Source of the DNA: Candidatus Bathyarchaeota archaeon | GTDB lineage: Archaea; Thermoproteota; Bathyarchaeia; TCS64 | DNA: 64,000 nt | Reading direction: 5' to 3' | Assembly (NCBI GenBank): GCA_043826455.1 | Contig: JBDRQD010000002.1 | Span: 1-64,000 of the forward strand | Part shown: positions 14,814-44,820 of the stretch, in pieces | Layout: each line of letters opens with the position of its first letter | Position numbering within the stretch: position 1 is the stretch's first letter | Translations under genes and position numbers: made by a program | The notes under the pieces: generated by a model | Databases searched by the model: none | Told to the model about the DNA's origin: nothing | The model's input: the letters and a program-made list of their open reading frames with translations, nothing else

Positions 14814-14852
14814 TATCGAACATTTTATCCTCACTTCTCGGTAGCTAAGTGC

Positions 14853-15374: not shown

Positions 15375-15431
15375 TCTTGTCCTCCTCAACGATTATATAT
15401 TACAGTTGATATCTCCTGTAATACGAGTGAT

Positions 15432-15743
15432 GTGGGGTTGACTGATGCTATAAGCCTCCGGCTACCCGAGGAAACCTTAAGAAAACTGGACGACCTGAGC
15501 ACACGTGAGGGCAAGGACAGGTCCACCCTCATCCGGGAGCTCCTTGAGAAAGGGATCAAGGAGAAAGACCTGGACAACGCAGTAGAGCAGTACAAGAGAG
15601 GCGACGCCACAGGCTGGAGAGCAGCCCAGCTAGCCGGCGTCTCCCTCTGGAACTTCATCAAGGTTCTCGACGAGAGAGGCGTCCTCCTCCAGTACGGAGA
15701 GAGGGACCTGGAACGTGACCTAGCCGCCCTAAGAGAAGACTAG
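15432..15743 (+). CDS. Antitoxin, ribbon-helix-helix plus UPF0175 domain
   Basis: ISLRLP...DRSTLIRELL RHH pattern; RAAQLAGVSLWNF; directly upstream of a PIN gene. Confidence 0.85.
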   Translation: MGLTDAISLRLPEETLRKLDDLSTREGKDRSTLIRELLEKGIKEKDLDNAVEQYKRGDATGWRAAQLAGVSLWNFIKVLDERGVLLQYGERDLERDLAALRED

Positions 15744-15745
15744 CC

Positions 15746-16267
15746 TTGCCAGCCGTCTCCAACAGCAGCCCTTTGATGTGGCTAGCAAAGGCTGGCAGGA
15801 TAGAGACCCTCAGAAACATCTTCGGAGAGATACTCGTCCCCAAGGAAGTTTACAGGGAGGTGGTCTCCGAGGGCCTGAGGCTAGGCTTCAGCGACGCGCT
15901 AGCAGTGGAGGAGGCTGTAAGGGCTGGGTGGATCAAGGTGATAGCCCTGACGGATGAGGAAGAAGAGTTCTCGTCAAGGCTGATCCAGGGCGCAGGGGAG
16001 ATACACGTCGGCGAGGCGCAGGCCATAGCACTAGCCAGAGGCCGTGGGGTGCCGCTGCTCATGGACGAGTCTAGTGGGAGAGCCCTCGCCGAGGCCCTGG
16101 GCATCGAGGCACGGGGAACAATCTACGTCGTGTTGAGAGCACTCAGGCAAGGCCTCATGGACAGGGGTGAGGCCAAGGAGACCATGAACAGGATGGTGGA
16201 AAAAGGTATGAGGGTAGACCCCAGGCTGCTCTCCAGGGTCCTGAAGGAGATCGACAGCTACAGGTGA
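15746..16267 (+). CDS. PIN-domain toxin (DUF3368 family)
   Basis: VSNSSPL, VPKEVYREV, GEAQAI, LMDE and RGT motifs. Confidence 0.88.
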   Translation: MPAVSNSSPLMWLAKAGRIETLRNIFGEILVPKEVYREVVSEGLRLGFSDALAVEEAVRAGWIKVIALTDEEEEFSSRLIQGAGEIHVGEAQAIALARGRGVPLLMDESSGRALAEALGIEARGTIYVVLRALRQGLMDRGEAKETMNRMVEKGMRVDPRLLSRVLKEIDSYR

Positions 16268-16395
16268 AATCCTCTCAGATACAATGTGAACGGAGGAATA
16301 ATGGAGCCATCGCCGTGTCACCGTCAAGGCTCCGCCAACAGGAAACAGGCAGTCAACCCAAATTATGAGATGATAAAAACTCTGGTTACTGGAGG

Positions 16396-26835: not shown

Positions 26836-27008
26836 CTCATCACGACAGAATTCAAGATCAGTATGTTTTCGGTTAGATAAGACTTGCCCGGTCAAGCAGT
26901 CCCCGGCCGCGTTTCTACTCAATGGTTCAGCCGCCGCCTTGTTTTCTGTTTACCCGTCTGGGGGTCCCATCATTAACGTCTTATAGACTCGCGGGTGAGT
27001 ACAATCTG

Positions 27009-27677
27009 ATGGCTTTGTCAGGCGGGGTCTTGGCTGTGGTCTCTCACCCGGACGACGAGACCTTCGGGTGCGGAGGGACCCTGGCCCTCCACGCGTCCAT
27101 GGGCGTCCCAGTGAGCGTCCTTTGCCTATCCTGCAATCCACCGGGTAGACGTGGGGAGATCATGGGGGCAGCCGAGGAGCTGGGCGTCCCCGAGCCCGTG
27201 GTCCTCGATGACCTGAGCATCGCGCAGACCCCGGGCCTCATCAGGCGGGTGGCTGACCACATAGTGGCCGCTAAGCCCAAAGTTGTGTTGACTCACGTCC
27301 CCTTCGACTATCACCGTGAGCACAGGGCGACCTACGAGGTGGTGAAGGAGGCCGTGGAGTGGGCGGCCCACACCACTACCTACGATGAGCCCTGCTTGGT
27401 GGAGCGGCTTCTGCTGATGGAGGTGAACACGCTCATACCTAGCCCCCACGTACTGGTGGACGTGTCGGAGGCCATGGACGCGAAGAGGCGGGCCACCAAG
27501 CGGTACACGTCCCAGCTGGCCAAGTTCACATGGGGCTACTATGAGAGGTTCAACGAGAAGAAGGCCGAGCTCCGCGGCGTCCAGGGCGGCTGCTCCTACG
27601 CCGAGGCTTTCCAGGAGGAGCCCCTGGCCAGGAGCGGCCCCTTCTACCCGGTGAAGAGCGTCAGGAGCCTCCTCTGA
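27009..27677 (+). CDS. bshB: PIG-L/LmbE-family deacetylase, probable GlcNAc-malate deacetylase
   Basis: HPDDE..GCGG, HxxH (HREH), YTSQ and YAEAF motifs; clustered with bshA and bshC. Confidence 0.8.
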   Translation: MALSGGVLAVVSHPDDETFGCGGTLALHASMGVPVSVLCLSCNPPGRRGEIMGAAEELGVPEPVVLDDLSIAQTPGLIRRVADHIVAAKPKVVLTHVPFDYHREHRATYEVVKEAVEWAAHTTTYDEPCLVERLLLMEVNTLIPSPHVLVDVSEAMDAKRRATKRYTSQLAKFTWGYYERFNEKKAELRGVQGGCSYAEAFQEEPLARSGPFYPVKSVRSLL

Positions 27678-27724
27678 GCCTCAAGGTTTAAACCGGCTCC
27701 GCGCCGTCTTTTCTGGGAGGAAAC

Positions 27725-28672
27725 TTGAATCTCTACGGGCTCAAGGTCATAGACTTCCACAGCCACTTCCCCGTCCAGAGGGGCGGCGGAGGGGGAGGCT
27801 ACTGGCAGCGGGTGGTCGAGAAGTACGGGGAGGAGCGGGCCACCATCATCATCCAGAACAGCCGAAGGTACAGGGACGACTGGAGGCGGATGTGGGGCTT
27901 CGAGGCTCCGGAGGAGGGGACCCACAGCGACGAGGAGCAGGCGGAGCGCTGGGTGGCTGACCTGGACGCCAAGGGCGTGGAGAGGGTGAACTTCGTCACC
28001 GGAGGCGGCAACGACAACCTGGTCAAGGTTGTGGCCATGCACCCCGACAGGTTCACTGGGTTCGCCCACCACGACCCCTTCAGCGAGGACGCGGCCGGTG
28101 AACTGGAGCGGGCCGTGAAGGATCTGGGCCTAAGAGGCTACAAGCTGATATCGTCGAGCCTGACTCAGCCGGTGGACGACAAGTCGCTTTACCCCCTTTG
28201 GGAGGCGGCTGAGAGGCTGAAGGTGCCCGTGCTCATCCACTTCGGCGTCCTTGGGGGAGGAGGGGGCCCCTCCAGGGACCTGAGGAACATGGATCCGCTG
28301 ACTCTGTGGGAGGTGGCCGCCAGTTTCCCGACGCTAAACTTCGTGGTACCCCACTTCGGGGCCTGTTACCTCCGGGAACTCCTTCAGCTGTGCTGGAGCT
28401 GCCCCAACGTGCTGATGGACACCTCGGGGAGCAACCAGTGGACCAGGTGGATGCCATACAGGCTGACCCTGGAGGACGTATTCAGGAAGGCCATAGAGAC
28501 GGTTGGCCCAGACAGGATCGTTTTCGGCACCGACTCCAGCTACTTCCCCAGGGGCTTTGCCCAGGAGTACCTGAGGGAGCAGCTGATGATATGCCGCAGC
28601 ATCGGCCTGGAGCAGGGCACGGTTGAGAAGATATTCAGCGGGAACGCGGCCCGGCTGCTCAGGCTCTCTTGA
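27725..28672 (+). CDS. Amidohydrolase_2 family metal-dependent hydrolase
   Basis: IDFHSH, PVLIH, PHFG, DTSG, FGTD and NAARLL motifs. Confidence 0.9.
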   Translation: MNLYGLKVIDFHSHFPVQRGGGGGGYWQRVVEKYGEERATIIIQNSRRYRDDWRRMWGFEAPEEGTHSDEEQAERWVADLDAKGVERVNFVTGGGNDNLVKVVAMHPDRFTGFAHHDPFSEDAAGELERAVKDLGLRGYKLISSSLTQPVDDKSLYPLWEAAERLKVPVLIHFGVLGGGGGPSRDLRNMDPLTLWEVAASFPTLNFVVPHFGACYLRELLQLCWSCPNVLMDTSGSNQWTRWMPYRLTLEDVFRKAIETVGPDRIVFGTDSSYFPRGFAQEYLREQLMICRSIGLEQGTVEKIFSGNAARLLRLS

Positions 28673-28717
28673 AAGGTTTTTATGAGCTCCCTCTGATGTG
28701 CATCCTATAAGTGGGGC

Positions 28718-30442
28718 ATGCACTTGGAGAACACTGCGCCGGCGCACCTGATCTACAGCGACTACGTGGAGAAGGGATTGAGGGCGGAGCTGGCCCAGGC
28801 TCTTTGGGGGCAGATACCGTCCATCATGGGTGACGCCTACGAGGCATTACCCAGGATTCGCTCAAAGTACGAGGCCTCCGCGGAGATCGAGGGCTTCAAG
28901 AAGGCTCTGAAGAACGAGATGAGGTCCATGGGGCTCCTCACGGGCCGGGTGGAGGCGAGCATCGACCGCTTGGACCGTGGCGTCGTGGAGACGGGCCAGC
29001 AGCCCATGTGCTTGGGGGGTCCCAGCCTGATCCTGAACAAGTTGGCGTACGCCCACAGCCTATGCGGCATGGGGGACCACGGCTACGTCCCCCTATTCTA
29101 TAACGCCGACTATGACGGTGTACAGGCCGAGCTGCTGAACATCCGGCTGCCTAGTCCCTCCTCGCATGGTTTGCTGCTTTCTTACCCGTCTGAGCTGGGT
29201 GACGAGGGTGTGCCCATCCGCCTGCTCCATAACCCGTCTGAGGACTGGTTTAGAAAGACTGTTGAGAAGATCGAAGGCAACGTCAAGGGGATCATGAAGG
29301 GGGTGAACCAGGATGATCAGGAGAGGGTGGCTCAGAGGCTGAGCCACGCCCTGACCATCATCAGGGGCGCCTACTTCAGCACTGGCAATGTGTCGGACTG
29401 GGCCGCCAAGACCCTGGGGATCATCATCAATTTGGAGGCCGACATGGGTGTGCCCGTGGTCTCCCCCAGCAAACCTGAGCTCAGGCCCTTCTTCCAGGAT
29501 GGGTACGAGTTCCTTCTCTCGGAGCCCACCCGCAGCCGCTTCGTGGAGGCATCCAACAGAGCCGCTGAGCTGGTGGAGGGTGCCGGGTACAGGGCGCAGA
29601 TAGGGTTGCGGGGCCGGGACTACGTCCCCTTCTTCCTGGAATGTATGACGCCGGGCTGCAGGCGGAGCCGCGTCGAGCTGAAGTACGACGCTGGTGTGGT
29701 TAAGGGGAAGTGCCCCAAGTGTGGGGAGGAGTACGAGTTCAGCTTCAACCCTGGCAGCCCCGACCTCACCGACATCATCGACTGGATATCACCTAGAGTG
29801 GACTCTAGGCAGATCATAGTGGACTCTGTAATGCCCGTGCTGGCCCACGTGGGGGGCCCCGGTGAGACCAGCTACTACGCTGAGGTGATCCCCGCGGCCA
29901 GCGAGCTGGGTGTACCGTTCCCTCAGTACCTGCGCTACACCAGGGTCTTCTATAACACGCCGTGGAACGAGGCCGCCGCTAAGGAGGTGGAGGCCCTGGG
30001 CCTCCCGATGATCCTTGGCGAGGCCCTCTTCGCCGCCCTCGGGAAGTGGGTTGAGGCGCGTAACTCAGAGAACGGGGCGGCGCTGGCTGAGGCTCACAGA
30101 GCCATCCGGGCTTCCATTGATGGGAGCTTCGGCGCCCTGGTGGGCGAGGCTGAGAGGCTTCAGGGGGAGATCGAGGGCATCAAGGGTCAGCTGGGCTCCG
30201 TGAAGGAGCGGGGGCCCCTCATCAGGGAGATGAGGGAGAAGCAGGGTAGACTCGGAGCCCTCGACCAGTACCTGTCCTGGGCCTACGGCAGGTTCAGCCC
30301 TGAGCGGTTCGGCCAGGAGGTCAGCTGGCACTGGCTGGACCTGGCCACGGTCACAGGCTTGGGGGACCTCATGGGGGTCTTCGACCGAGTCTATAACAGG
30401 TGGACGCCCAACAGCTCCGTCTACTTCGCCAACACGGGCTAG
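28718..30442 (+). CDS. bshC: Bacillithiol biosynthesis cysteine-adding enzyme BshC-like
   Basis: VETGQQP..LGGP.....K, SP...R, HVGGPGETSYY and a C-terminal coiled coil match the BshC layout. Confidence 0.82.
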   Translation: MHLENTAPAHLIYSDYVEKGLRAELAQALWGQIPSIMGDAYEALPRIRSKYEASAEIEGFKKALKNEMRSMGLLTGRVEASIDRLDRGVVETGQQPMCLGGPSLILNKLAYAHSLCGMGDHGYVPLFYNADYDGVQAELLNIRLPSPSSHGLLLSYPSELGDEGVPIRLLHNPSEDWFRKTVEKIEGNVKGIMKGVNQDDQERVAQRLSHALTIIRGAYFSTGNVSDWAAKTLGIIINLEADMGVPVVSPSKPELRPFFQDGYEFLLSEPTRSRFVEASNRAAELVEGAGYRAQIGLRGRDYVPFFLECMTPGCRRSRVELKYDAGVVKGKCPKCGEEYEFSFNPGSPDLTDIIDWISPRVDSRQIIVDSVMPVLAHVGGPGETSYYAEVIPAASELGVPFPQYLRYTRVFYNTPWNEAAAKEVEALGLPMILGEALFAALGKWVEARNSENGAALAEAHRAIRASIDGSFGALVGEAERLQGEIEGIKGQLGSVKERGPLIREMREKQGRLGALDQYLSWAYGRFSPERFGQEVSWHWLDLATVTGLGDLMGVFDRVYNRWTPNSSVYFANTG

Positions 30443-31032
30443 TCCCCGTGCCGCTTCCTGAGGGGCGGGGAGAGCCTCACCATGGTGAGCATTCGCTCGA
30501 ATATGTCCACCCACTCGGCCATATCGGCCTCCAGGGCCCTCGGGCTGAGTACGCCCTGGGGCTGCCCTCGGCCTATCTCCCTGGACGCCTTGGCCCTGTA
30601 GACTGTGACTAGTCTGTCTCCGAAGCGGCCCACCTCCCAGAAGTCCTCTGTGAGGAAGATCACCATGGGCACTCTGAGGGCGCCGAGGATGCGCAGCTCG
30701 TCCTGAAGCTCCTCCGACGCCTCCCGGTCAATGACCCTGAGGTGGACCCTTTCACCGGCTGTGTCAGCCAGCTTATTGAGCATGGGGCCCTGCCTGGCGC
30801 AGTCGCCGCACCAGATGCCCCCGTACATGAGGACGTTGAGCTCCCTGTCCCAGCCCTGGAGCCGCTCCTCCTGATCCGGTGTGAGTTCGGGCAGTCGCTC
30901 CGCGTTCTCCCTCCACCTTGCGGCTTTCTCCTGGTCGGACTCGTCGATGAAATCGTCGTAGGGCTTGGCCATGTTGAAGTGGCGCTTCCAGAACTCTGCC
31001 CTCTTGTCGTAGTAGGTCGGATTCTCGGTCAC
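30439..31032 (-). CDS. Thioredoxin-fold protein (WCGDC)
   Basis: WCGDC active site; RVP cis-Pro loop. Confidence 0.88.
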   Translation of the reverse strand: MTENPTYYDKRAEFWKRHFNMAKPYDDFIDESDQEKAARWRENAERLPELTPDQEERLQGWDRELNVLMYGGIWCGDCARQGPMLNKLADTAGERVHLRVIDREASEELQDELRILGALRVPMVIFLTEDFWEVGRFGDRLVTVYRAKASREIGRGQPQGVLSPRALEADMAEWVDIFERMLTMVRLSPPLRKRHGD

Positions 31033-31065
31033 ATCGAATTGGATTGAGGCCGCACCATATATTGG

Positions 31066-32172
31066 TTAGCCTGTGACCCGCCTGTAGACGTCCAGGTACT
31101 GCTGCACAACCTTCTCGGTGCTGTAGCGCTCCACCACGGTCTCCCGTGCCGCGGCCCCCATCCTCTTCAGCTTCTCCCTGTCGCCGTGGAGCTCAAGTAT
31201 CTTCTCTGCTATGTCCTCCGGGTGCTTGAGGGGCACCAGGAACCCGTTGCGGCCGTCCTCTACGATCTCCGGTATGCCGCCCACGTTGGTGGCTACCACC
31301 GGGAGACCTGTGCTCATGGCCTCCAGGATGGTGAGTGGGGCGCTCTCCGTCTCGCTGGGCAGCACCAGGGTGTCAACGCATCTGAGGAGGTCCGGGACGT
31401 CGCTCCTGTAGCCGGTTAGAACCACGTTGCGGCGGAGGTCCATCTTGTCGATGAGGCGCTCCACCCTGTGCCTCTCGGGGCCGTCCCCGATGAGCATCAG
31501 CTTGGCCTTGGGCGCCGTCTTGGTGACCATGCACATGGCGTAGACCAGGTCGTCCACCCTCTTCACGGGCCTGAAGTTGCTTACGTGGGCAACGACGATG
31601 TCCCGCTCAGGCTGCTCCATGAGCTCGCAGGGGGCCGGTGAGTAGACCTCTGTGTCCACGAAGTTAGGTATCACCTTGATCGCGTTGTTGATCCCCAAGT
31701 TGTTCTTGGCCTCGTCGGCCATGAACCTGGAGACGGCTGTCACGGCGTCGGCCTGCTCCACGCTGAAGGTGTTCACAGGCTCGTAGCTTGGGTCGCTTCC
31801 CAAGATGGTGACATCGCTGCCGTGCAGCGTCACCACGTAGGGCTTCCCTGTGAGGCCCCTGCTCAGGTAGGCGGCGGTCGCGTGAGGGATGCTGTAGTGG
31901 ACGTGGAGGAGGTCTAGGCCACGCTTCACGGTGACGCGGCTCATCTCGCTGCCCAGGGCGATGGTGTAGGGAGGGTACTTGAAGAGGGGGTACTCTAGGA
32001 CGCTCACCAGGTGAACGTACACGTTCTCCGGGTCCACCCCCTGGATGGCCACAGGCCGCTCATATGTGATAAAGTGGGCCTCGTGGCCCCTCTTGGCGTA
32101 CTCGACGCCCAGCCTTGTGGCCAGGATGCCGCTGCCCCCCACCGTGGGGTAACATGTTATGCCTATCCTCAA
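31066..32172 (-). CDS. bshA: N-acetyl-alpha-D-glucosaminyl L-malate synthase BshA
   Basis: IGITCYPTVGGSG, YPLFKYPPY, HVHYSIPHA, TLHGSD and SNFRPVKR are BshA-specific motifs. Confidence 0.93.
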   Translation of the reverse strand: MRIGITCYPTVGGSGILATRLGVEYAKRGHEAHFITYERPVAIQGVDPENVYVHLVSVLEYPLFKYPPYTIALGSEMSRVTVKRGLDLLHVHYSIPHATAAYLSRGLTGKPYVVTLHGSDVTILGSDPSYEPVNTFSVEQADAVTAVSRFMADEAKNNLGINNAIKVIPNFVDTEVYSPAPCELMEQPERDIVVAHVSNFRPVKRVDDLVYAMCMVTKTAPKAKLMLIGDGPERHRVERLIDKMDLRRNVVLTGYRSDVPDLLRCVDTLVLPSETESAPLTILEAMSTGLPVVATNVGGIPEIVEDGRNGFLVPLKHPEDIAEKILELHGDREKLKRMGAAARETVVERYSTEKVVQQYLDVYRRVTG

Positions 32173-32230
32173 GACGGGTCACCGTAATGCTATACTGACT
32201 AGAAAGAAAGGATGGGATAAAAAGGTGGGG

Positions 32231-32704
32231 TTAGGTGCCCTTCATGCGCTTCTCGACGCCCAGGATGGCGGCGATCTGGCCCTCGTGGTGGATGATCTCG
32301 CTGATGGCTAACATCAGGTACTTCTCCTTGGGCTGGACACCGTAGAACCAGTCCAGGGGCTCGGCCAGGTCCTTGTCCTTGAGCCTGTTGAGGGTCTTGA
32401 TCAGGTTCTCCTTGCCGACCTTGATGTCCCCCATGATCTTGTCTAGGGAGTAGCTGGTGTTGCCCACGTAGTCCTTGGGCCACCCTTTGGGGGTGTAATC
32501 CTTGTCTCCCTTGACAATCTTGGGGATGAAGGCGTGGAGCTCGCTGGACAGGTGGGTCAGTATCCACCGTATGGTGTTGGCCTGGGGGCAGCTCTTCCAG
32601 TCAAGCTGCTCAGGCTTCAGGTCCTTTGTGGCTCGTTCTAGGCGTTCGAAGCCTAGCATCGCGAAGCCCTTCAAAGAGTCAGTCTTCTTGGTCATGTTAA
32701 TCAC
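32231..32704 (-). CDS. DinB-superfamily protein (putative thiol S-transferase)
   Basis: NTIRWILTHL...EIIHHEGQI four-helix pattern. Confidence 0.85.
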   Translation of the reverse strand: MINMTKKTDSLKGFAMLGFERLERATKDLKPEQLDWKSCPQANTIRWILTHLSSELHAFIPKIVKGDKDYTPKGWPKDYVGNTSYSLDKIMGDIKVGKENLIKTLNRLKDKDLAEPLDWFYGVQPKEKYLMLAISEIIHHEGQIAAILGVEKRMKGT

Positions 32705-32775
32705 GTTAAAACTGGGTACAACCTAGTTGGCTTGTACCGGTAATAATACTTTTGATCCGAAGAAAAAAAGGGGAT

Positions 32776-33255
32776 TTACTTGAGGAAGCCGGGGTCCTTC
32801 TCCTTGAGGCGCTTCACTGTGCCCCTGATGTAGGCGATCTGGCCCCTGTGATGGTACAGCTCACCTATGTAGGCGAATATCCCCGTCTTCCGCTTCTGCT
32901 TGCCTCCCCAGAGGGGTATCTCCTCCTCCAGCTGCTCGTCCTTGAGCTTGGCGAGGCCCTCAACGGCGGCCTTCTTACCGGCCTTGATGTCCTTCATCAG
33001 CTTCTCCAGGCTGTAGGCCTGGTCGCGGTAGTCCTCTGGCCACCCCTTGGGGCTCCAGTTGGGGTCCGCCTTGACGATGCGGGGGATGCTCATGTTCACG
33101 ATCCTGCTCAGGTGGTTCAGGTTCCACTGGATACTGTTGGACTCCGACGTGAGCTTGTATGTGAACTCCTTCTCGCCCAGGTTCTCGGCGTGCCTGTCCA
33201 GGCTGTCGATGACGTACCCGAGCTGCTCTGCAAGTATTGACGTTTTGTCTCCCAT
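32776..33255 (-). CDS. DinB-superfamily protein (putative thiol S-transferase), tandem paralog
   Basis: NSIQWNLNHL...ELYHHRGQI; shares PKGWP.DY with its neighbour. Confidence 0.85.
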   Translation of the reverse strand: MGDKTSILAEQLGYVIDSLDRHAENLGEKEFTYKLTSESNSIQWNLNHLSRIVNMSIPRIVKADPNWSPKGWPEDYRDQAYSLEKLMKDIKAGKKAAVEGLAKLKDEQLEEEIPLWGGKQKRKTGIFAYIGELYHHRGQIAYIRGTVKRLKEKDPGFLK

Positions 33256-33305
33256 AGAAACACCATGATCAGTGTTGAACGGGCGCTTATAACGCGTTCC
33301 CCCAC

Positions 33306-34073
33306 CTACGCCTCTCTCATCTTCTCAACGAAGCCCACCAGGTACTCCACCGTCTTCTCGTAGAGCTGTCTCCCCTTCTCGGCTGAGCCCCGCGTAGGGT
33401 CACCCATGAAGCCGCTGGGCTCCACCTCCTCGGCCCAGTAGTAGACGCTCTGAGGGTGGCCGTCGAACACGTGGGTGCCGTAACTCCGGGTCTCCAAGCC
33501 CTCCAGCGGCTGGTTCAGAGGCTTGAGCTCGGCCCTGCTCATATCCACCAGCTCCGGGTGCAGGTGCAGCATCACCGATGTTACGGGCTCGCCGCCGTGC
33601 CCCATCCTGAGGCCTGGGCCCCAGAAGTCCTTGGGGGTCATCTGGGTGACGACGCCCCAGACGTGGATGACGGCGCACAGGGCCCCAGCCTCCTCCCTGA
33701 GCCTGTATGAGACCTCTCTGAGGGCGGGGAGGTTGTCGCCGCCGTGGGCGCTGAAGAAGATGATCTTCCTGAAGCCGCATTTAGCTAGGCCCAGGCACGC
33801 CTCGTAGACGTACCGGCTCAGGGTCTCCATGCTCACAGTCATGGTGCCGGGGAAGTGCTTGTAGGGCTCGGAGACGCCGAAGGGGATCACCGGAGTGACG
33901 GGCACCCGGATCCTCTCCCCCACGTCCCTGGCCGCGGCCTCGGCCAGCAGGTAGCAGCAGCCCACCGGCTTGTGGGCTCCGTGAGGCTCCATGCTGCCCA
34001 GGGGCACTATGACGGTGTCGGCGGCCTCCTCCTCTATGGTGACCCAGCTCTTATGGTGCAGGTAGAATGACAA
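33306..34073 (-). CDS. Creatininase family amidohydrolase
   Basis: PLGSMEPHGAH, FPGT, HGGDN, HGGE and GDP motifs. Confidence 0.88.
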   Translation of the reverse strand: MSFYLHHKSWVTIEEEAADTVIVPLGSMEPHGAHKPVGCCYLLAEAAARDVGERIRVPVTPVIPFGVSEPYKHFPGTMTVSMETLSRYVYEACLGLAKCGFRKIIFFSAHGGDNLPALREVSYRLREEAGALCAVIHVWGVVTQMTPKDFWGPGLRMGHGGEPVTSVMLHLHPELVDMSRAELKPLNQPLEGLETRSYGTHVFDGHPQSVYYWAEEVEPSGFMGDPTRGSAEKGRQLYEKTVEYLVGFVEKMREA

Positions 34074-34821: not shown

Positions 34822-35658
34822 TTAGGGCCTGATGGGCGCCTGCACCTCGGTCATGATCTCGTCAGGGGCCACCTTGTTGGGGTCGTTGAGGTACAGGTCC
34901 CTCATGGGGCCGGCGATCTCCAGGCTCTTCTCCGAGACGTAGCCGTGGAGCCTCTGGTACGCCTGCCCTATGGTCTCGTAGCTGCCTCTGTGGACGAGGC
35001 TCACCACCCTGCAGGGCTCCAGGTTCCTGACCTCCACGGCGGGGTCCTCCACCACCAGCTTCCCCGTGACGGGGACGGCCACCTCTACGTCGGCGCCCTC
35101 CTCCTTGTACTCCTCGTCATGGTAGATGGTCATCACCGGGCCCACAATCTTCACGTAGTTTCGCTGGTTCTCGGGGGCGTATAGCACCCTCATGAGGTCG
35201 CCTATCAGCCTCCCAATGGTCTCGTCGTAGCTGCCGGTCTCCCTCTTGCTGAGGACACGGAGCCCGGGGACGTCCTTCACCACGGGGTCGGACATGGTCA
35301 CTTTAAACATCTCCTCCTTCTGGTTTCCTCTGAGCAACGACACGACCCGCTGGAGCCTGGTGAGCTCCCTCTCGGCGTCACCCAGGCGCAAGCTGAGGAG
35401 CTTATCCTGGGCGTCTCCGTCTCCCCTGTCCTCAGCCTCGAAGTATGCCGCCATCTCCTCGACGCTGAACCCCAGGTCGGATAGCTGCCTGATCTTGACG
35501 CCCCTCTGAATCTGGGCGCCCGTGTAGTACCTGTAGCCCGTGAAGGGGTCCTTGGCGCCGGGCACCAGGAGCCCCTTGGCGTCGTAGTAGCGGAGGGCCT
35601 TCTGGCTGAGGCGGGTGACCACGCTGAACCTGCCGATGGATATCTGGTCGACCGTCAT
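34822..35658 (-). CDS. MerR-family regulator with GyrI-like effector domain (BmrR-like)
   Basis: SIGRFS...KALRYYD..GLL, TGYRYY; C-terminal HRGSYE and YLNDP. Confidence 0.92.
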   Translation of the reverse strand: MTVDQISIGRFSVVTRLSQKALRYYDAKGLLVPGAKDPFTGYRYYTGAQIQRGVKIRQLSDLGFSVEEMAAYFEAEDRGDGDAQDKLLSLRLGDAERELTRLQRVVSLLRGNQKEEMFKVTMSDPVVKDVPGLRVLSKRETGSYDETIGRLIGDLMRVLYAPENQRNYVKIVGPVMTIYHDEEYKEEGADVEVAVPVTGKLVVEDPAVEVRNLEPCRVVSLVHRGSYETIGQAYQRLHGYVSEKSLEIAGPMRDLYLNDPNKVAPDEIMTEVQAPIRP

Positions 35659-35862: not shown

Positions 35863-37014
35863 TTGTTCAAGGCGCGTTTCTGGGTGAGGCTGTTGTTGGC
35901 GGTCTCCCTGTCATTAGCCGCCACGGCTCCAGCCGCCCTGTGCTCCTCTGGGCCGAGCTCACGGTACGGGTGCCGGTTGGTCTACGACTCTGTGAACGAG
36001 AGGCTCATGATGTTCGGAGGCACCTACGAGGGGACGTCGCCTCAGGTCTATGACGACACGTGGGCCTTCGACTGGGACACCGAGTCGTGGAGGCTTCTGG
36101 AGGTTGAGCCCCACCCGCCACTGCGAATGGACTACGGAATTGTGTACGTCCCGGAGCTTGAGGGCTTCATCCTCTTCGGGGGGTGGAACAAGGGAGGTTG
36201 GCTGGGGGACACGTGGCTCTACGACTGCGCCTCCCAGACTTGGACTGAGCTTCACCCCGCCGCGGCGCCCGAGGCCAGGACCAGCATGGGGTTCTGCTGC
36301 GACGAGGCGAATGGCGTCCTAGTGCTTTACGGTGGTTACACGGAAGCTCTACCCGACATGGGGGACACGTGGCTCTACGACTACTCCACAAACACGTGGA
36401 CGGAGGCCGCGCCGGAGGCCAGCCCACCGGCCCTGTACGGGTGCGAGATGATCTATGACCCATCCACCCAGGCCGTGCTCATGTTCGGGGGCCACTACTA
36501 CGAGAATGACAGGGACTTCTTCATAAGGAGCGTGTGGGAGTACGATGTGGCTGCTAACACGTGGACTGATCGGCAGACGCAGAGCGGACCCTCTGAGAGG
36601 TACTGGCAGAACACGGCGCATGATAGCCAGGACGGCACCGTGATAGTCTTCGGGGGGAGGCGCCTCGGGAGCCAGTACGACGACACCTGGATATATAACC
36701 CAGGCGACGACAGCTGGACGAGGCTCGACGTGGCTCGCCGCCCCCAGGCCCGATTCCAGTCAGCCTTCGCCTACGACCCGGTGCGTAACGCGGCTGTGCT
36801 GTTCGGCGGCTTCACCTTCGAGAATCGTCAGAACTTCGGAGACACCTGGATACTTGACTTATCCCAGGAGAGCCCAGACTGGAGGCAGGTGGGCGAAGGG
36901 ACACAGCCTGAGAGCGCACCTTCCTCGGGTATAGACGGCTTCCCCGCCGAGACCATCTTTCTGGGGATGCTTGCATTTCCTCTGCACGCTTACTTCAGGA
37001 GACGAATGTCATGA
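35863..37014 (+). CDS. Secreted Kelch-repeat beta-propeller protein with C-terminal anchor
   Basis: Signal peptide; six FGG...DTWxYD repeats; GIDGFP-TM-RRR tail. Confidence 0.9.
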   Translation: MFKARFWVRLLLAVSLSLAATAPAALCSSGPSSRYGCRLVYDSVNERLMMFGGTYEGTSPQVYDDTWAFDWDTESWRLLEVEPHPPLRMDYGIVYVPELEGFILFGGWNKGGWLGDTWLYDCASQTWTELHPAAAPEARTSMGFCCDEANGVLVLYGGYTEALPDMGDTWLYDYSTNTWTEAAPEASPPALYGCEMIYDPSTQAVLMFGGHYYENDRDFFIRSVWEYDVAANTWTDRQTQSGPSERYWQNTAHDSQDGTVIVFGGRRLGSQYDDTWIYNPGDDSWTRLDVARRPQARFQSAFAYDPVRNAAVLFGGFTFENRQNFGDTWILDLSQESPDWRQVGEGTQPESAPSSGIDGFPAETIFLGMLAFPLHAYFRRRMS

Positions 37015-38291
37015 AATCTGAGACCTCATCACTGTCTTTTAAAAAAAGTTTCATGCACGGTGCGCTTCTGCTTTGTATCATCCTTCAAACATCAGCACAG
37101 CTGCCGTCAACGCTCGCAACAGACTCGAACCCCTCGGAGAGGTACGGTGCAGCCATGGCATACGACGAGGCGAACGGGAGGCTCATACTCTTCGGGGGCA
37201 GCGAATGGGACGACACCCCCACATTCTACGACGACACGTGGGCCTATAACTACAGCTCCAACGAGTGGGTGGAGCTAAGCCCCGCGGTTCGGCCTCCCCC
37301 CAGGTTCAACCCCGGGGTAGCGTACATCCCGGACAGGCAGGCCATCCTCATCTTCGGCGGGTACAAGCCCCCCGAGCGTAACCTAGGCGATACCTGGCTG
37401 TTCGACGTGAAGACGGACACTTGGCGAGAGCTGGAGCCCTCGAACAGCCCCACGCCGCGGAGCAACGTGGGCATGGCATACGACACCAAGAACGGGAAGG
37501 TGATCCTCTTCGGGGGCAGCAGCAACTCCGAGTATCCTACATCAGACACGTGGGCCTACGATTTCGAGGCGAACACCTGGACGGAGATGCATCCGGCGGC
37601 CTTCCCCAAGCCCCAGTACGGCGTCGGTATGGTTTACGACTCCCTGAACGAGCGCATCCTGCTCCTGGAGGGCCACTGGGTAACCAGGGAGAGCGGCGCG
37701 GTGAGGGACGGCTACGACGGCGGACTCTATACGTACGACTATGCCGCAGACACCTGGACGAAGATAGAGTGCTCGACACCGCCCGGGCGGTACTGGTACT
37801 CGACCGCGTACGACAACGACCTTGGGCGGATGATAGTGTTCGGCGGCATCAGGTGGATCGGGGGATACGGGAACATGTACGACGAGACATGGGTCTACGA
37901 TTCTGAGACGAATACATGGTCCAAATCCATTGAGAAGGGTCCCGAGAAGAGGTACATATCGGGGATGGCCTACGACCAGGGCGGCGGGGTGACCGTGCTC
38001 TTCGGCGGCGCAGTTGTCGTAGGTGATGCGCCGGGGGGAGGCGACCTGCGGGAATACTACTCGGACACCTGGGCCCTCAACGCCACACTCGGGTGGAGCA
38101 GGCTCCTCGAGTCCGCGGCCCCAGTTGAGCCGGCAGAGGCGGAGGAGCCCGAGGCGGACATGGGTATCCCGGCGTTCCCTGTTGCCTCGTTATCAATCGG
38201 CCTCGGCGTGGCGCTCCTGTACCTGAAATGGAAGAGGCTTTCAAAAGCCGCATGGGATGTCTCCCCCGGGGGAGACTCCCAGCATATATAG
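37011..38291 (+). CDS. Secreted Kelch-repeat beta-propeller protein with C-terminal anchor, paralog
   Basis: Signal peptide; Kelch repeats; GIPAFP-TM-KWKR tail. Confidence 0.9.
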   Translation: MKSETSSLSFKKSFMHGALLLCIILQTSAQLPSTLATDSNPSERYGAAMAYDEANGRLILFGGSEWDDTPTFYDDTWAYNYSSNEWVELSPAVRPPPRFNPGVAYIPDRQAILIFGGYKPPERNLGDTWLFDVKTDTWRELEPSNSPTPRSNVGMAYDTKNGKVILFGGSSNSEYPTSDTWAYDFEANTWTEMHPAAFPKPQYGVGMVYDSLNERILLLEGHWVTRESGAVRDGYDGGLYTYDYAADTWTKIECSTPPGRYWYSTAYDNDLGRMIVFGGIRWIGGYGNMYDETWVYDSETNTWSKSIEKGPEKRYISGMAYDQGGGVTVLFGGAVVVGDAPGGGDLREYYSDTWALNATLGWSRLLESAAPVEPAEAEEPEADMGIPAFPVASLSIGLGVALLYLKWKRLSKAAWDVSPGGDSQHI

Positions 38292-39866: not shown

Positions 39867-40703
39867 ATGAGCATCCTCAGAGAGAAGACGCAGCGCCTCA
39901 TAGAGGACACCGCGGAGGAGTACCCTGCAGTCATGGGGCTGCACTCCGTGAGCCTCACCGACCCTGACGACGAGCTGTCGCTGAACGCCGACGAGGTGTT
40001 CCCCACGGCCAGCATCATCAAGGTGCCCGTGCTCCTAGAGTTCTACAGGCAGGCCGAGGAGGGCGCCCTGGACCCGGGCGAGGTCAGAGCCCTCAAGGAG
40101 GAAGACAAGGTGGGGGGCAGTGGCGTCCTCCAGCATCTCACCGTCGGCTCCACCGTGCTGACGCTGGAGGACTACGCCCGGCTGATGATCAACCTGAGCG
40201 ACAACACAGCCACCAACGTGGTCATCGACCAGGTGGGCCTGGACAACGTCAACGGGCTCCTCCAGGGCCTCGGCCTCGACGCGACCAGGCTGGCGAGGAA
40301 GATGCAGGTCAAGGGCCTTGACCCTGACAGGGTGGAGAACCTGTCAACGCCCAGGGAGCTGACAGGGCTCATGGAGGCGATCCACCGGGGCGAGGGCCTG
40401 AGCCCGGGCGTCTGCGAGAAGACGCTGGTCATCCTCAGTCTCCACAAGCCCGGGGTGATCAGGGACGCCGTGCAGAATGGGGTGGATGTGGCGGACAAGA
40501 GCGGGTGGATGGGTGGCGTGGAGTGCGACACAGGCATCGTCTACACGTCCAAGCCCTACGCGGTCACAGTCATGGCCAAGAACATCCCCGCCTGGGACTT
40601 GGGCGGCCTAGAGGCCAAGGAGGTCCTCAGGGAGCTGGTCTCAACTGTCCACGACTACTACCTGAACGTGGGGACGGCCACCAGGCACGGCCGCAGGCGC
40701 TAG
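39867..40703 (+). CDS. Serine hydrolase, class A beta-lactamase-like fold
   Basis: ASIIK (SxxK), SDN and KSG motifs; no signal peptide. Confidence 0.9.
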   Translation: MSILREKTQRLIEDTAEEYPAVMGLHSVSLTDPDDELSLNADEVFPTASIIKVPVLLEFYRQAEEGALDPGEVRALKEEDKVGGSGVLQHLTVGSTVLTLEDYARLMINLSDNTATNVVIDQVGLDNVNGLLQGLGLDATRLARKMQVKGLDPDRVENLSTPRELTGLMEAIHRGEGLSPGVCEKTLVILSLHKPGVIRDAVQNGVDVADKSGWMGGVECDTGIVYTSKPYAVTVMAKNIPAWDLGGLEAKEVLRELVSTVHDYYLNVGTATRHGRRR

Positions 40704-40896
40704 AAGACTCAAACGTCTAAGGGGCCTCTTCCATTGGCTCTTCGGGCCCCGTTACCCAGTTTTCCTTCGTTTTATGGGCGGATGCAGCTAAAATGTGATT
40801 GAACCCAGTCAAGAAGTGGAACAGAGTACCAAAACCCGGATATTTAACCTCGTGTATAGGAGTCGATCAAGAGGAGTAGTTACACTTTGGAAGGCG

Positions 40897-42288
40897 ATGA
40901 CGATGATGTTCAAGGAAAGAGTAGCGGAACTGGAGAACTACATCTTCAAGCGGATGGGCGACGCCGAGATAATAGGCCTCAGCATCGCCGCAGTGAAGGA
41001 CGGCCAAGTAGCCTACAGTAACGGTTTCGGTTTCAGGGATTTTGATAAGGGCAGCAGCGCGAACCCGGAGACCACGTACTGCATAGGCAGCGTGACCAAG
41101 AGCTTCACGGCCCTGGCGGCGCTGCAGCTCCAGGAGAGGGGCCTCCTCAGCTTAGACGACCCCATAACCAGGTACGTAAACTTCAAGGCCAAGCCCATGG
41201 GGGAGCCCATACGCGTGAAGCACCTCCTGAGCCACAGCAGCGGCCTCCCCTCACTGGGATACGCCGAGGCCACCCTGGGGGCGGTGACCGAGACCTATGA
41301 CAGCTGGTTCCCCATAAGCAGCCCCAAGGACCTCCTGATCTTCATGAGCGGGGCCGACGAGTGGGCCCTGGCCAGACCGGGAGAACGCCACGCGTACCTG
41401 AACGAGGGCTACATCCTGCTGGGCAGCATAATCGAGGAGGCCTCGGGACGCGACTACGTGTCCTATGTGACTGAGAACATCCTCCGCCCCCTGGGCATGG
41501 ACAGGAGCACCTTCATGGAGGAGGACGTGAAGAGGGACAGGAACGTGGCCACCCCCTACGTCACCAACAAGGACGGCGTCAAGGTGGCCACCAGGTACCC
41601 CTACGGGCAGATGCTGGCCGACGGCGGCCTCATGAGCAACGCCGTGGATATGGCAAGGTTCACCGAGATGCTCCTTAACCTGGGTGAACTTGATGGCGTC
41701 CAGGTGGCGCGGCCCGATACAGTGCAGGCTATGATGGAGCCCAAGATACGCACGGTGGAGGAGCCTGTGCCGGGGGCGGGCCACCACAGCTACGGGTACG
41801 GGATGCGCATAAAGGAGGAGTTCCTAGGCCACAACCTGGTGTACCATAGCGGCAGCGTCTACGGTTCCAGCGCCTACATGTGCCTGGTGCCCGATGAGGA
41901 CGTGGCCGTGGTCATACTGGCAAACGGAGGCTACTTCCTGGAGGACATGGGGGAGTACGCCATGGCCCTGCTACTCGGCAGGGAGCCCGGTGAGGTGCCC
42001 TACATGAAGAGGACTGGCGCCCTGGACAGGCTGACCGGCACCTACAGGACCTTCAAGGACACCTCCAGCTACGAGGTGACCCGGAGCAGCGGCATCCTCC
42101 AGCTGGAGATGACGTGGGGCAGGAGAACCTACACGGTGCCCCTCATCCCTGTGGACCTTGAGGGGGAGCCCAAGCTGTTCAGGATGTGCGGGGTGGAGGC
42201 CACGACGCCGGTGGAGTTCTTCCAGAGGGGCGGCGCCACCTACATGGTGTACGACCGCACCATGGCCAAGAAGGCCAACGGCTGTTAG
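40897..42288 (+). CDS. Serine hydrolase, class C / Pab87-like peptidase with C-terminal domain
   Basis: GSVTK, LLSHSSG, YLN and HSG motifs. Confidence 0.9.
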   Translation: MTMMFKERVAELENYIFKRMGDAEIIGLSIAAVKDGQVAYSNGFGFRDFDKGSSANPETTYCIGSVTKSFTALAALQLQERGLLSLDDPITRYVNFKAKPMGEPIRVKHLLSHSSGLPSLGYAEATLGAVTETYDSWFPISSPKDLLIFMSGADEWALARPGERHAYLNEGYILLGSIIEEASGRDYVSYVTENILRPLGMDRSTFMEEDVKRDRNVATPYVTNKDGVKVATRYPYGQMLADGGLMSNAVDMARFTEMLLNLGELDGVQVARPDTVQAMMEPKIRTVEEPVPGAGHHSYGYGMRIKEEFLGHNLVYHSGSVYGSSAYMCLVPDEDVAVVILANGGYFLEDMGEYAMALLLGREPGEVPYMKRTGALDRLTGTYRTFKDTSSYEVTRSSGILQLEMTWGRRTYTVPLIPVDLEGEPKLFRMCGVEATTPVEFFQRGGATYMVYDRTMAKKANGC

Positions 42289-42422
42289 CCTGCCCCATTT
42301 TAGCCCTTTTTCTAATCCCCGTCTTTCATCCAGTGAATAAGCGAAACGAGAAATCAACACGAGCCACGTGATGTGGAAACTTAAAAATGCGCCCTGAACC
42401 CCTAAAGGTATCAGTGTTCTAA

Positions 42423-43526
42423 ATGGGCGCCACGAGGAAGAGTAGGGCACGGGACCTGGGCGTACCCTTCGACGGGGAGCCGGGTACCTTCAACGCCATA
42501 ACCGACGTGAAGGGAGTTCTGGTCGGGCACTCGACCATCATCTCAGGGGAGGGTAAGATGGTGGTCGGCAAGGGCCCAGTGAGGACGGGCGTCACCGCGG
42601 TCCTGCCCCGCGGCAGGTGCTATGATCCAGTCTTCGCAGGCTGGTCGTGCCTCAACGGGAACGGTGAGATGACCGGCACCACCTGGGTGGAGGAGTCCGG
42701 TTTCCTAGAGGGCCCCGTCATGATCACCAACACCCACAGCGTGGGGGTCGTCCACGACGCCGTCATCGAGTGGATGAACCAGAGGAAGGCGGAGAACCCC
42801 ACCATAGGCGAGGTTCACTGGTCGCTGCCCGTGGTGGCTGAGACCTACGACGGGCGCCTCAACGACATCAACGGGTTCCACGTGAAGAAGAAGCATGCCT
42901 TCCAGGCCCTTGAGTCGGCTGCCTCGGGCCCCGTCGAGGAGGGAAACGTGGGCGGAGGCACAGGGATGATATGCCACCAGTTCAAGGGCGGCATCGGCAC
43001 GGCCTCGAGGCGGCTGAGTGAAGATGAGGGAGGGTACACGGTGGGCGTCCTGGTTCAGGCCAATTATGGGCTGAGGCCGCTCCTCACGGTGGCCGGCGTC
43101 CCTGTGGGCCGCGAGACACCGGACCTGATGCCCGCCATCAGTGGCGAGGGCGGCTCCATCATCGTGGTGGTGGCCACTGACGCGCCCCTGCTGCCCCACC
43201 AGCTGAAGCGGCTGGCTAGGAGGGCGCCCCTCGGGATAGCCCGTGTGGGCGGCGTCGGCGGCGACAGCTCCGGGGACATCTTCATCGCCTTCTCCACGGC
43301 CAACCCCGGGGTTCACGGGAAGGGCAAGGTGTCTGAGCTCAGGATGCTGTCCAACGACCTCAACACTGGGCTGTTCCTGGCCACGGTCCAGGCCACGGAG
43401 GAGGCTATAGTCAACGCCCTGGTGGCCGCCGAGACCATGACAGGCGTCAACGGCAACACGGTCTACGCATTACCCCACGACAGGCTGAAGGACGCCCTGA
43501 GGAAGTACAATCGGTTGGCCGAGTGA
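42423..43526 (+). CDS. dmpA: DmpA / P1 family aminopeptidase
   Basis: NAITDV, NGNGE, EGNVGGGTG, GS autoprocessing site (GGSIIVV) and SGD. Confidence 0.92.
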   Translation: MGATRKSRARDLGVPFDGEPGTFNAITDVKGVLVGHSTIISGEGKMVVGKGPVRTGVTAVLPRGRCYDPVFAGWSCLNGNGEMTGTTWVEESGFLEGPVMITNTHSVGVVHDAVIEWMNQRKAENPTIGEVHWSLPVVAETYDGRLNDINGFHVKKKHAFQALESAASGPVEEGNVGGGTGMICHQFKGGIGTASRRLSEDEGGYTVGVLVQANYGLRPLLTVAGVPVGRETPDLMPAISGEGGSIIVVVATDAPLLPHQLKRLARRAPLGIARVGGVGGDSSGDIFIAFSTANPGVHGKGKVSELRMLSNDLNTGLFLATVQATEEAIVNALVAAETMTGVNGNTVYALPHDRLKDALRKYNRLAE

Positions 43527-43669
43527 ACCGCGCGAGCGCCGCTCGGCCAAGGAACCCCATCGGGCACTGGCCCCGACGCGGCTCACCAACATTCTACCTA
43601 TGCACAATGCGTGTCGCCGGGAGCCGTGCACCGGGGACCACAACCAATATGGAGCCCCGCTTCCTGTGA

Positions 43670-44671
43670 GTGATCGAGATGTCCACCGATCACATATGGG
43701 ACAGGATCAAGGACAAGAGTAACGTCGTAGGCTACTCCAAGAGGCTGAGAAGACGCATAAGGGACGGCGTTGAGATGGAGGAGGAGGTCATAAGGGTCTA
43801 CGTCTCCAGGAAGCTCCACGCCTCAGCCCTGGACCTAAAGGACCTTATACCCGGGGAGATCGACGGTGTCCCCACGGACGTAGTCGAGATAGGGGACATG
43901 AGAGCCCTGAACATCTACCCTATGGCCCACGTGACGAGGGTTCGCCCACTCGTCGCGGGGGTAAGCATAGGTAACTGGGCGATAACGGCGGGGACCTTGG
44001 GCTGGTTCTTCAGGGATGGTAGAGGAAGGGATATGCTGGGCAGCAATGCCCACGTCTTCGCAGAAGACCCCCTGAGCCAATCGTCAGGCGAGACCCGCAT
44101 AGTGCAGCCGGGCAGGGCAGACGGGGGCATAGTCCCTGAGGACATGGTGGGCACGTATAACTGGCACCAGCCCCTCGCCGGGAGCGGCTGCGCATTCTCC
44201 AACGCCATTGTGGGCCTGCTGAACGGCGCCAGCGCCCTCCTCGGTAGGAGAACCAGGTTCCATCTCAAACTTACCGACAGAGCCAGGATCGACTTCGCCG
44301 TCGCCGAGCCCACCGTCGATTACGAACTGAAGCTGCTAACAGCCGAGGAGTGGGACGACTTCGTGGGCCTCGGGTTCGCCGGGAGCTCACAGGCCAGCTT
44401 CTTCTGCAAAGCGGAGCACATAGAGGCGGCAGGCTGGAAACCCGTGGAGAAGACCATCCAGGCCGTGACCATCGGGGACACCATTCACAAGATCGGGCGC
44501 ACCTCCGAGTACACATCGGGCCAGATCCTGGACGACTCGGCCTACGGCAGGGTCAGCTACGGCGGCCTGAGCCTGGTGGAGTTTGACGACGTCATCCTTA
44601 CGACCCCCATGTTGGAGGCGGGGGACAGCGGGGACTCGGCCTGGAAAACCATGATTAGGAATGCAGAATAA
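43670..44671 (+). CDS. Trypsin-like (S1) serine protease with N-terminal prodomain and rearranged C-terminal barrel
   Basis: AGTLG, SNAHV (His), IDFA (Asp), GRT and GDSG (Ser). Confidence 0.85.
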   Translation: MIEMSTDHIWDRIKDKSNVVGYSKRLRRRIRDGVEMEEEVIRVYVSRKLHASALDLKDLIPGEIDGVPTDVVEIGDMRALNIYPMAHVTRVRPLVAGVSIGNWAITAGTLGWFFRDGRGRDMLGSNAHVFAEDPLSQSSGETRIVQPGRADGGIVPEDMVGTYNWHQPLAGSGCAFSNAIVGLLNGASALLGRRTRFHLKLTDRARIDFAVAEPTVDYELKLLTAEEWDDFVGLGFAGSSQASFFCKAEHIEAAGWKPVEKTIQAVTIGDTIHKIGRTSEYTSGQILDDSAYGRVSYGGLSLVEFDDVILTTPMLEAGDSGDSAWKTMIRNAE

Positions 44672-44820
44672 GTGAGGCGGTTTTCTGACAGCGTCAAGTT
44701 GGGGAAAAATTAGGCAGACTAGTAATCAGCTATTTTATTAAAATTAAAATGGTTCAGCAAATGCGCCACGTAATATGGTTAATCTTATTTTACCACCAGA
44801 GGATAAGAAGATGATTCATC

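Follow-up and report, generated by a model that had tools for sequence, protein, structure and literature searches.

Whether an archaeon can make and use a bacillithiol-type thiol is the question raised by a cluster of seven genes in the genome of a Candidatus Bathyarchaeota archaeon. Bathyarchaeia rank with the most abundant archaea of sediments, and to our knowledge bacillithiol has so far been measured only in bacteria. The cluster occupies positions 26922-33255 of a 64,000-nucleotide (nt) stretch, positions 1-64,000 of contig JBDRQD010000002.1, referred to here as the window. Its genes were taken from a list of open reading frames (ORFs) with their translations and were assigned by Pfam and NCBIfam profile scans. 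A preliminary description of this DNA had proposed a complete locus for the biosynthesis and utilisation of such a thiol. Taken together, our results indicate that this is probably a native, family-wide cluster for making and using a bacillithiol-type thiol, a cysteinyl-hexosaminyl-malate that would be bacillithiol or a close analogue. We infer every substrate and product from what the computation established, namely family membership, folds, conserved catalytic motifs, synteny and co-occurrence.

Gene order and the three biosynthetic families

All seven genes were found at the places and on the strands given in the preliminary description, and they form two convergent groups. The plus-strand group comprises an LmbE/PIG-L family Zn deacetylase resembling BshB (26922..27677; Pfam PIG-L 63.8 bits, gathering threshold (GA) 28.2), an Amidohydro_2 TIM-barrel metal hydrolase (27725..28672; Pfam 156 bits) and an archaeal-type BshC-like putative cysteine ligase (28718..30442; PF10079 Rossmann-like_BshC 48.9 bits, GA 27). 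The minus-strand group, in order of transcription, encodes two DinB_2 proteins that are candidate thiol S-transferases (DinB2, 32776..33255, 41.7 bits; DinB1, 32231..32704, 46.1 bits; GA 24.8), a predicted BshA, the GT4 N-acetylhexosaminyl L-malate synthase (31066..32172), and a Thioredoxin_9 redoxin with a WCGDC active site (Trx9, 30439..31032; Pfam 67.7 bits). Intergenic gaps of 33-71 nt within each group and a 4-nt overlap of the convergent BshC and Trx9 gene ends fit two operons. The reading frame of the LmbE gene was borne out as described, but the start noted for it, 27009, is an internal ATG of an ORF that opens at 26922; with homology setting in only around residue 34, translation may nevertheless start at 27009.

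Among the three biosynthetic candidates, BshA was the most firmly assigned. Its score of 413.5 bits on TIGR03999 passes the NCBIfam equivalog cut-off of 273.7, and in the PDB it matched B. anthracis BshA (2JJM/3MBO) at 318 bits, whereas the next GT4 enzyme, TarM, reached 93.6 bits. By the hidden Markov model cut-off and the score to solved BshA, the gene at 31066-32172 is thus assigned as a true BshA, in line with the preliminary description and nearer to the solved enzymes than to generic GT4 proteins, and we infer that it acts on a UDP-N-acetylhexosamine and L-malate. The conserved H, N, K and E...E residues are present, and the ligand-contact segments LHG-S/T-D, NF-x-D and SNFR-x-VK are kept. 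The ESFG motif (S. aureus residues 280-283), which is present in 2JJM as aligned with the window protein, was not found, and the window BshA reads ESAP at this position.

To place this change, the window protein was aligned with 35 Bathyarchaeal orthologues, two Heimdall orthologues and 120 database relatives of a Heimdall BshA. All 36 Bathyarchaeal copies read E(S/N)(A/T/S)P, whereas E(S/A)FG was found in 122/122 of the others, a partial contrast set whose few taxon-named database members (Heimdallarchaeota, Ignavibacteria, Gemmatimonadota, Zixibacteria) include no named Bacillota. Two further changes, S100A and F213M, were specific to the Bathyarchaeal proteins. A quick tree built from 87 rows (13 Bathyarchaeal sequences out of the 36, the first 20 database rows and then every second one, with two GT4 paralogues of the same genome as outgroup) recovered a Bathyarchaeal clade with 100% support on a stem of 0.75, separate from an Asgard-like clade (99%). 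It was weakly (80%) sister to bacterial rows, a placement that bears on the gene donor only as far as a tree without named Bacillota sequences can. According to the accessible text of PMC10361700, the ESFG motif hydrogen-bonds N-acetylglucosamine (GlcNAc) in S. aureus BshA, and in the N. meningitidis W polymerase Gly or Pro at the motif position switches the donor preference between galactose and glucose. By this analogy, the motif change may be a lead, not proof, for an altered donor sugar.

The BshC-like protein is more distant from its bacterial counterparts. It passed the Pfam threshold of PF10079 and scored 51.4 bits on TIGR03998, where the cut-off of 265.8 was not reached. Its GQQ and GPGE-x-Y motifs align with those of B. 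subtilis BshC. A search of 1.84 billion cluster representatives returned 287 matches at E <=0.001, 50 of them at <=1e-30, and an alignment of 51 BshC-family sequences from this search served as input for an AlphaFold2 model and a tree. The model (predicted local distance difference test score, pLDDT, 96.3) has a Rossmann-like core and a C-terminal helical coiled-coil region, with long helices at residues 435-556, as expected of the BshC fold. Foldseek placed B. subtilis BshC (4WBD) on top, with E 1.4e-18, template-modelling (TM) scores of 0.68/0.72 and 14% identity in the structural alignment; class I lysyl-tRNA synthetase (1e-7) and class I methionyl-tRNA synthetases came next. Q95, K108, D133, R318, G380 and Y386 were invariant in 51/51 sequences, archaeal and canonical types alike. 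On profile and model, the protein encoded from 28718 is therefore judged to be a true but distant BshC homologue, its homology being settled by these two lines because the sequence-only match was weak.

A four-Cys knuckle (C309, C314, C332, C335) flanks the hairpin that holds the invariant R318 in the window protein. Cys pairs also occur in the other long-branch BshC relatives of the alignment, with three or four Cys in most, whereas none of the 16 canonical-length representatives carries the knuckle cysteines. A quick maximum-likelihood tree of the 51 rows separated canonical from Cys-bearing BshC by a branch with 100% support in the Shimodaira-Hasegawa-like approximate likelihood ratio test (SH-aLRT), and the eight Bathyarchaeal rows formed a single clade (100%) within the Cys-bearing group. 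Ten BshC representatives were looked up; the four with NCBI names were all Asgard (Ranarchaeia, Hodarchaeales/Thorarchaeota, Promethearchaeota and Harpocratesius) and all named BshC. The window BshC thus belongs to an archaeal branch with a four-Cys knuckle, which it shares with Asgard archaea.

For the LmbE protein, which is present as a single copy in the genome, BshB1 was the best NCBIfam match in a test of TIGR04001 and TIGR04000 (74 bits against a cut-off of 182.5), followed by BshB2 (60 against 195). In 34 rows of orthologues, conservation of the H42-P-D-D45 motif and of the H131/H134 pair (H-x-x-H) is 95% or higher. In the PDB, TT1542 (43 bits), S. aureus BshB 6P2T (42.6) and diacetylchitobiose deacetylase (40.9) were equally near, and therefore the sequence does not resolve its substrate.

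In comparison with the bacterial pathway (BshA, BshB1 or B2 and BshC of B. subtilis, of B. anthracis and of S. aureus; 2JJM/3MBO/5D00, 6P2T/2IXD, 4WBD), the cluster contains the same three enzyme families, with BshA at equivalog level, LmbE with an intact Zn motif, and BshC with its fold and signature residues. It differs in the low BshB and BshC scores, in the Cys knuckle, in ES(A)P for ESFG, and in holding all genes in a single convergent cluster with an extra Amidohydro_2, and the pathway is known here through its genes. The nearest archaeal comparison is with Asgard homologues, which share the Cys-knuckle branch of BshC and have BshA and LmbE in the same genomes. Bathyarchaeal BshC is 25-31% identical to the four Asgard-named representatives and 27% identical to those of the two Heimdall loci, L051 and L053. 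The BshA proteins form separate clades, and the two Heimdall loci keep the ESFG motif that the Bathyarchaeal ones lack. In the Heimdall loci the partner of BshC is a Pyr_redox_2 flavoprotein, whereas in the Bathyarchaeal loci its partners are LmbE and Amidohydro_2. This flavoprotein of 310-312 amino acids, divergent to the BshC-like gene (L051:6890-9554, L053:6927-9587), is a candidate Asgard disulfide reductase.

Archaeal origin, synteny and distribution

The genome (2.95 Mb in 81 contigs, 97.7% complete, one 16S gene) has an estimated contamination of 7.2%. This figure, together with BshA and MerR-type regulators being typical of bacteria and with three related loci in bacterially named metagenome-assembled genomes (MAGs; two Desulfaltia, one Krumholzibacteriaceae), could suggest that the contig is bacterial contamination in an archaeal bin, in which case the locus would say nothing about archaea. 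We consider this extremely improbable. The 16S gene scored higher on the archaeal model (1492 bits) than on the bacterial one (1114). It is 96% identical to that of the MAG carrying locus L007 (submitter name Bathyarchaeia) and 88-89% identical to those of three Bathyarchaeota MAGs (G402-G404); BshC identity to the same genomes declines in parallel, from 79% to 53-54%. The cluster contig has practically the same G+C content (GC) as the 16S contig (0.591 and 0.593), and synteny with L007 extends to the Por and Kelch genes on the flanks, at 77-97% amino-acid identity.

The 48 related loci detected in species-representative genomes gave the same picture: 41 belong to Bathyarchaeia or Bathyarchaeota MAGs, some of them on contigs 377-527 kb long or in genomes that form a single contig, two to Heimdallarchaeota and one to an 'uncultured archaeon'. 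The three loci under bacterial names (L012, L013, L014) are cluster genes on contigs of 2-8 kb, of Bathyarchaeal type and 64-94% identical, and were probably mis-binned in the public bins. The last locus, L054 (named Woesearchaeota), was discarded as a chance match of 24 residues with none of the cluster genes. The genome is thus archaeal and the locus native to it, in line with the archaeal host originally proposed, and a bacterial origin of the contig is rejected.

The genetic context analysis indicated that the arrangement is conserved. In 34 of 45 Bathyarchaeia-type loci of other assemblies, BshC and BshA stand tail to tail; LmbE is located upstream of BshC, and the DinB genes are upstream of BshA, giving the order LmbE-[Amidohydro_2]-BshC convergent with [Trx]-BshA-DinB-DinB; the other 11 lie on contigs that end inside or beside the cluster. 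Since order and orientation are identical in these 34 loci, the arrangement is not due to chance. Full-length copies were counted for BshC (41), BshA (37), LmbE (33), DinB1 (29), DinB2 (25), Amidohydro_2 (24), Trx9 (18), MerR (6) and creatininase (2).

The distribution was examined in a class-wide sample of 401 genomes, consisting of the window's own genome, 70 others of its family (f1) and 330 of other families. A BshC-like gene was present in 59 of the 70 other family genomes, and two weak matches were obtained in the 330 genomes of all other families, so that the gene is confined to one Bathyarchaeia family. An earlier phylum-wide sample of 401 genomes, which barely drew this family, had yielded three weak BshC matches besides the own genome; this sparseness was dismissed as a sign of contamination, as the class and family searches show confinement to f1. 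Within the family, 60 of 71 genomes (own genome included) were BshC-positive and 11 BshC-negative; the genomes are kin and not independent, and the counts are given without statistics. BshA occurred in 56/60 BshC-positive and 0/11 BshC-negative genomes, the Amidohydro_2 orthologue (E <=1e-70) in 52/60 and 0/11, and Trx9 in 48/60 and 1/11. Of the eight BshC-positive genomes that lack Amidohydro_2, five carry BshC at the end of a contig, and five BshC-negative genomes, spread over three genera, are 94-96% complete. In genus g163 (G402-G404), Amidohydro_2 and Trx9 lie on contigs other than that of BshC and have nevertheless been retained, with identities of 70-73% and 50-54%.

Sediment and groundwater RNA libraries contain contigs, derived from relatives and 90-97% alike, that cover 30251-33520 with Trx9, BshA and both DinB genes; BshC and Amidohydro_2 have little or no cover. 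As only short contigs of relatives fall on the locus, they are a weak hint of transcription, not proof, and cannot rank the genes.

Two further observations concern BshC itself. One single-contig family genome (G491) carries two BshC-BshA pairs about 1.4 Mb apart (C1:31389-34207 and C1:1445091-1447927). Outside the family, a still more divergent BshC-like ORF (21-29% identity) adjoins an LmbE homologue (28-33%) in three genomes of other families of the class or phylum (L004:573-2364, L005:1507-3478, L006:1507-3310), in loci that stop short of a possible BshA neighbourhood.

Companion proteins and redox partners

The Amidohydro_2 gene lies between LmbE and BshC in 24 loci, and this synteny, together with the co-occurrence given above, bears out the suggested link of the amidohydrolase to the pathway. 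Its model is a TIM barrel (pLDDT 85) whose nearest fold is the uncharacterised BB4693 (3IRS, E 3.7e-14), followed by LigW, gamma-resorcylate decarboxylase and LigJ, which are aromatic-acid decarboxylases or hydratases. H12, H14, H172, H210 and D270 were invariant in 30 sequences. The best 120 database matches, 64-95% identical, are from Bathyarchaeota and are unnamed or called 'amidohydrolase family'. The enzyme thus appears to be an addition to the bacterial pathway, and its reaction is not nameable from sequence and fold. A complex prediction for the BshC-like protein with Amidohydro_2 scored 0.00 (mark 0.32), which counts neither for nor against binding.

The metal-binding and redox motifs of the remaining cluster proteins are conserved across orthologue rows, in agreement with the preliminary description. 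DinB1 keeps H51, H139 and H140 at 95% or more (30 rows) and DinB2 keeps H48, H135 and H136 (26 rows). The two are 38-39% identical to each other, and a third paralogue is on contig C66. On the Pfam mycothiol S-transferase (MST) model (GA 27), DinB1 fell below the threshold with 24.3 bits and DinB2 just passed it with 28.2. Like the known DinB/YfiT thiol S-transferases (B. subtilis BstA and mycothiol S-transferase), they belong to the DinB_2 four-helix family, carry a three-His metal site and are encoded beside thiol genes; they differ in scoring below the NCBIfam MST cut-off and in being two tandem paralogues. In Trx9, whose nearest structure is the uncharacterised PA1234 (1Z6N), 19 rows show 95% or higher conservation of W74, C75, D77, C78 and the cis-Pro P122, and its sequence makes it a candidate disulfide reductant of the thiol system.

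The utilisation side is less complete than first described. No YpdA/Bdr (TIGR04018) over the cut-off (best 52 bits against 340) and no match to YtxJ (TIGR04019) or BrxA/B (PF06491) was found in the 97.7%-complete genome, and 'complete' is thus too strong a word for the utilisation genes. A CoA-disulfide-reductase-like gene is present (380 bits against a cut-off of 579; CoA, coenzyme A), and a profile search for a GCS2-type gamma-glutamylcysteine ligase in the genome was negative. Compared with BrxA/B/C and Bdr (YpdA), the need for disulfide recycling would be the same and the cluster does hold a CxxC thioredoxin-fold protein; in contrast, those families were not found in the genome, and the redoxin is of the Thioredoxin_9, PA1234-related kind.

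Upstream of the DinB genes follow a creatininase-family gene (33306..34073, minus strand; Pfam 188.7 bits), a small membrane ORF and a gene for a MerR helix-turn-helix and GyrI-like regulator (34822..35658, minus strand; MerR_1 43.9 bits, GyrI-like 75.7 bits), which is a possible regulator of the minus-strand genes. A MerR/GyrI-like gene stands near or beside DinB2 in six loci (L007, L010, L023, L035, L037, L052). The creatininase, once suggested to modify the thiol or recycle its conjugates, is a neighbour of the cluster here and in just the two nearest relatives (L007, L052), and the genome encodes some ten paralogues of it; it was rejected as part of the system on these grounds and is probably unrelated to it.

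Proposed pathway and alternative explanations

In the proposed pathway, BshA would join a UDP-N-acetylhexosamine to L-malate to give N-acetylhexosaminyl-malate, LmbE would remove the acetyl group, and the archaeal-type BshC would add cysteine to the free amine. The two DinB proteins may then conjugate the thiol to electrophiles for detoxification, and the WCGDC thioredoxin may reduce the thiol disulfide or mixed protein disulfides, replacing the absent Bdr and bacilliredoxins. Amidohydro_2 would perform an extra step, for which hydrolysis of an S-conjugate or of a precursor amide is a guess by analogy to Bca/Mca. In the genus that carries the MerR/GyrI regulator, this protein may activate the genes of the minus strand.

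Several points weigh against this assignment. DinB_2 proteins form a broad superfamily, and both DinB proteins scored far below the cut-off of the NCBIfam mycothiol-transferase model MST_Rv0443 (29.7 and 41.3 bits against 170). Physical linkage can explain much of the joint absence of cluster genes, and G480, where the genes are unlinked, is the only genome to lack BshC, BshA and Amidohydro_2 jointly. The sugar-contact motif of BshA is altered in all 36 Bathyarchaeal copies, and therefore the donor sugar may differ. In a sequence-only comparison with the PDB, the BshC-like protein matched 4WBD no better than at E 0.31. Both it and the LmbE protein fall far under the BshC and BshB equivalog cut-offs, and the names bshB and bshC of the preliminary description are therefore family-level calls, which stand for the first through an LmbE fold family with an intact Zn motif and for the second through Pfam, conserved motifs and fold. 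According to the accessible text of PMC5790435, the BshC reaction has never been reconstituted in vitro, bacteria included, and therefore the term cysteine ligase is itself deduced. The thiol has never been measured in any such archaeon, as far as the accessible part of a 2020 review goes (PMC7278568), and in RefSeq, under strict BLAST criteria, Hammerstad et al. (2025) report in the accessible text no archaeon with a complete pathway (PMC12719100). The latter result, so far as that text describes the survey, fits the present data, because the similarity of archaeal BshC is low and MAGs are absent from RefSeq.

The altered motif raises the question of whether the product is a distinct analogue and not bacillithiol, with the donor (for instance UDP-N-acetylgalactosamine, UDP-GalNAc) or the acceptor shifted, or with Amidohydro_2 remodelling the molecule. 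The uniform contrast between the Bathyarchaeal and the other BshA proteins at the GlcNAc-contacting position, S100A and F213M, the long stem of the Bathyarchaeal clade, the switch known from the Neisseria polymerase, the co-occurrence of a conserved additional enzyme and the separate Cys-knuckle type of BshC all point in this direction. However, BshA still scores 140 bits over the equivalog cut-off and keeps its other ligand-contact residues, the Neisseria enzyme used for the comparison is only distantly related within GT4, no observation connects Amidohydro_2 with a modification, and the 122 sequences of the contrast set were collected through their relationship to a Heimdall BshA. We therefore regard a distinct analogue as rather unlikely. 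A bolder proposal, which we hold to be doubtful, is that one Bathyarchaeia family makes a new sugar thiol distinct from bacillithiol, either by carrying another hexosamine, set by the clade-wide FG-to-AP change in BshA, or by undergoing a further Amidohydro_2 step, and that the Zn-knuckle BshC together with Amidohydro_2 could supply the factor that has been missing from BshC reconstitution for fifteen years.

Were the product no thiol at all, it could be, for instance, an amino-acyl-glucosaminyl-malate containing a different amino acid, or glucosaminyl-malate (GlcN-malate) serving as solute or precursor, with the DinB and thioredoxin genes as unrelated neighbours. The unproven BshC substrate in any organism, the 14% identity of the archaeal-type BshC to 4WBD in the structural alignment, and the lack of Trx9 in 12 of the 60 genomes with BshC, five entire genera among them, would be compatible with such a glycoside. 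Yet the two DinB genes and BshA remain adjacent in 25-29 loci, the BshC signature residues are invariant across archaeal and canonical types, and a thiol transferase family and a CxxC redoxin standing with three biosynthetic genes are what a thiol system predicts. A non-thiol product is accordingly judged highly improbable, and the bacillithiol-type thiol is kept as the preferred explanation.

Bacillithiol genes in archaea have, as a general idea, been published before and appear in the names given by databases, and the surprise is therefore moderate. NCBI names many of these Bathyarchaeota proteins BshC, and the accessible text of Rawat and Maupin-Furlow (2020) lists 39 archaeal InterPro matches each for BshA and BshC, mostly Asgard (PMC7278568). 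The novelty first claimed is reduced to this extent, but the part concerning the absence of any measurement of such a thiol in archaea stands. A full-text literature search for bacillithiol with Bathyarchaeota, Bathyarchaeia or Asgard, covering main texts and not supplements, found the cluster nowhere described. The present analysis adds profiles of co-occurrence at the level of the family, the contrast in the BshA motif and a check of which redox partners are missing. The family-wide, defined cluster offers concrete genes for expression and assay; for the unsolved reaction of BshC, new material is provided by the archaeal-type enzyme with Amidohydro_2 and Trx9 as its constant companions, and the BshA motif change is a simple handle on donor-sugar specificity.

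Outside the cluster, the flank beyond LmbE carries the PorCAB genes of a 2-oxoacid:ferredoxin oxidoreductase. At 12000-16300, an island of low GC (47-52%, compared with about 62%) contains several small ORFs in a row on the same strand, namely two GNAT acetyltransferases, DUF4760, DUF3368 and one ORF without a Pfam match. On the other side, the MerR gene is followed by two adjacent Kelch-repeat beta-propeller genes (35863-38291), syntenic in L007 and L052. Farther along, at 39867-46476, a class A beta-lactamase-like protein, a Pab87-type serine hydrolase with an octamerisation domain, a DmpA/S58 aminopeptidase and a second beta-lactamase-fold protein are encoded in a run that looks like a set for the utilisation of D-amino acids or peptides.

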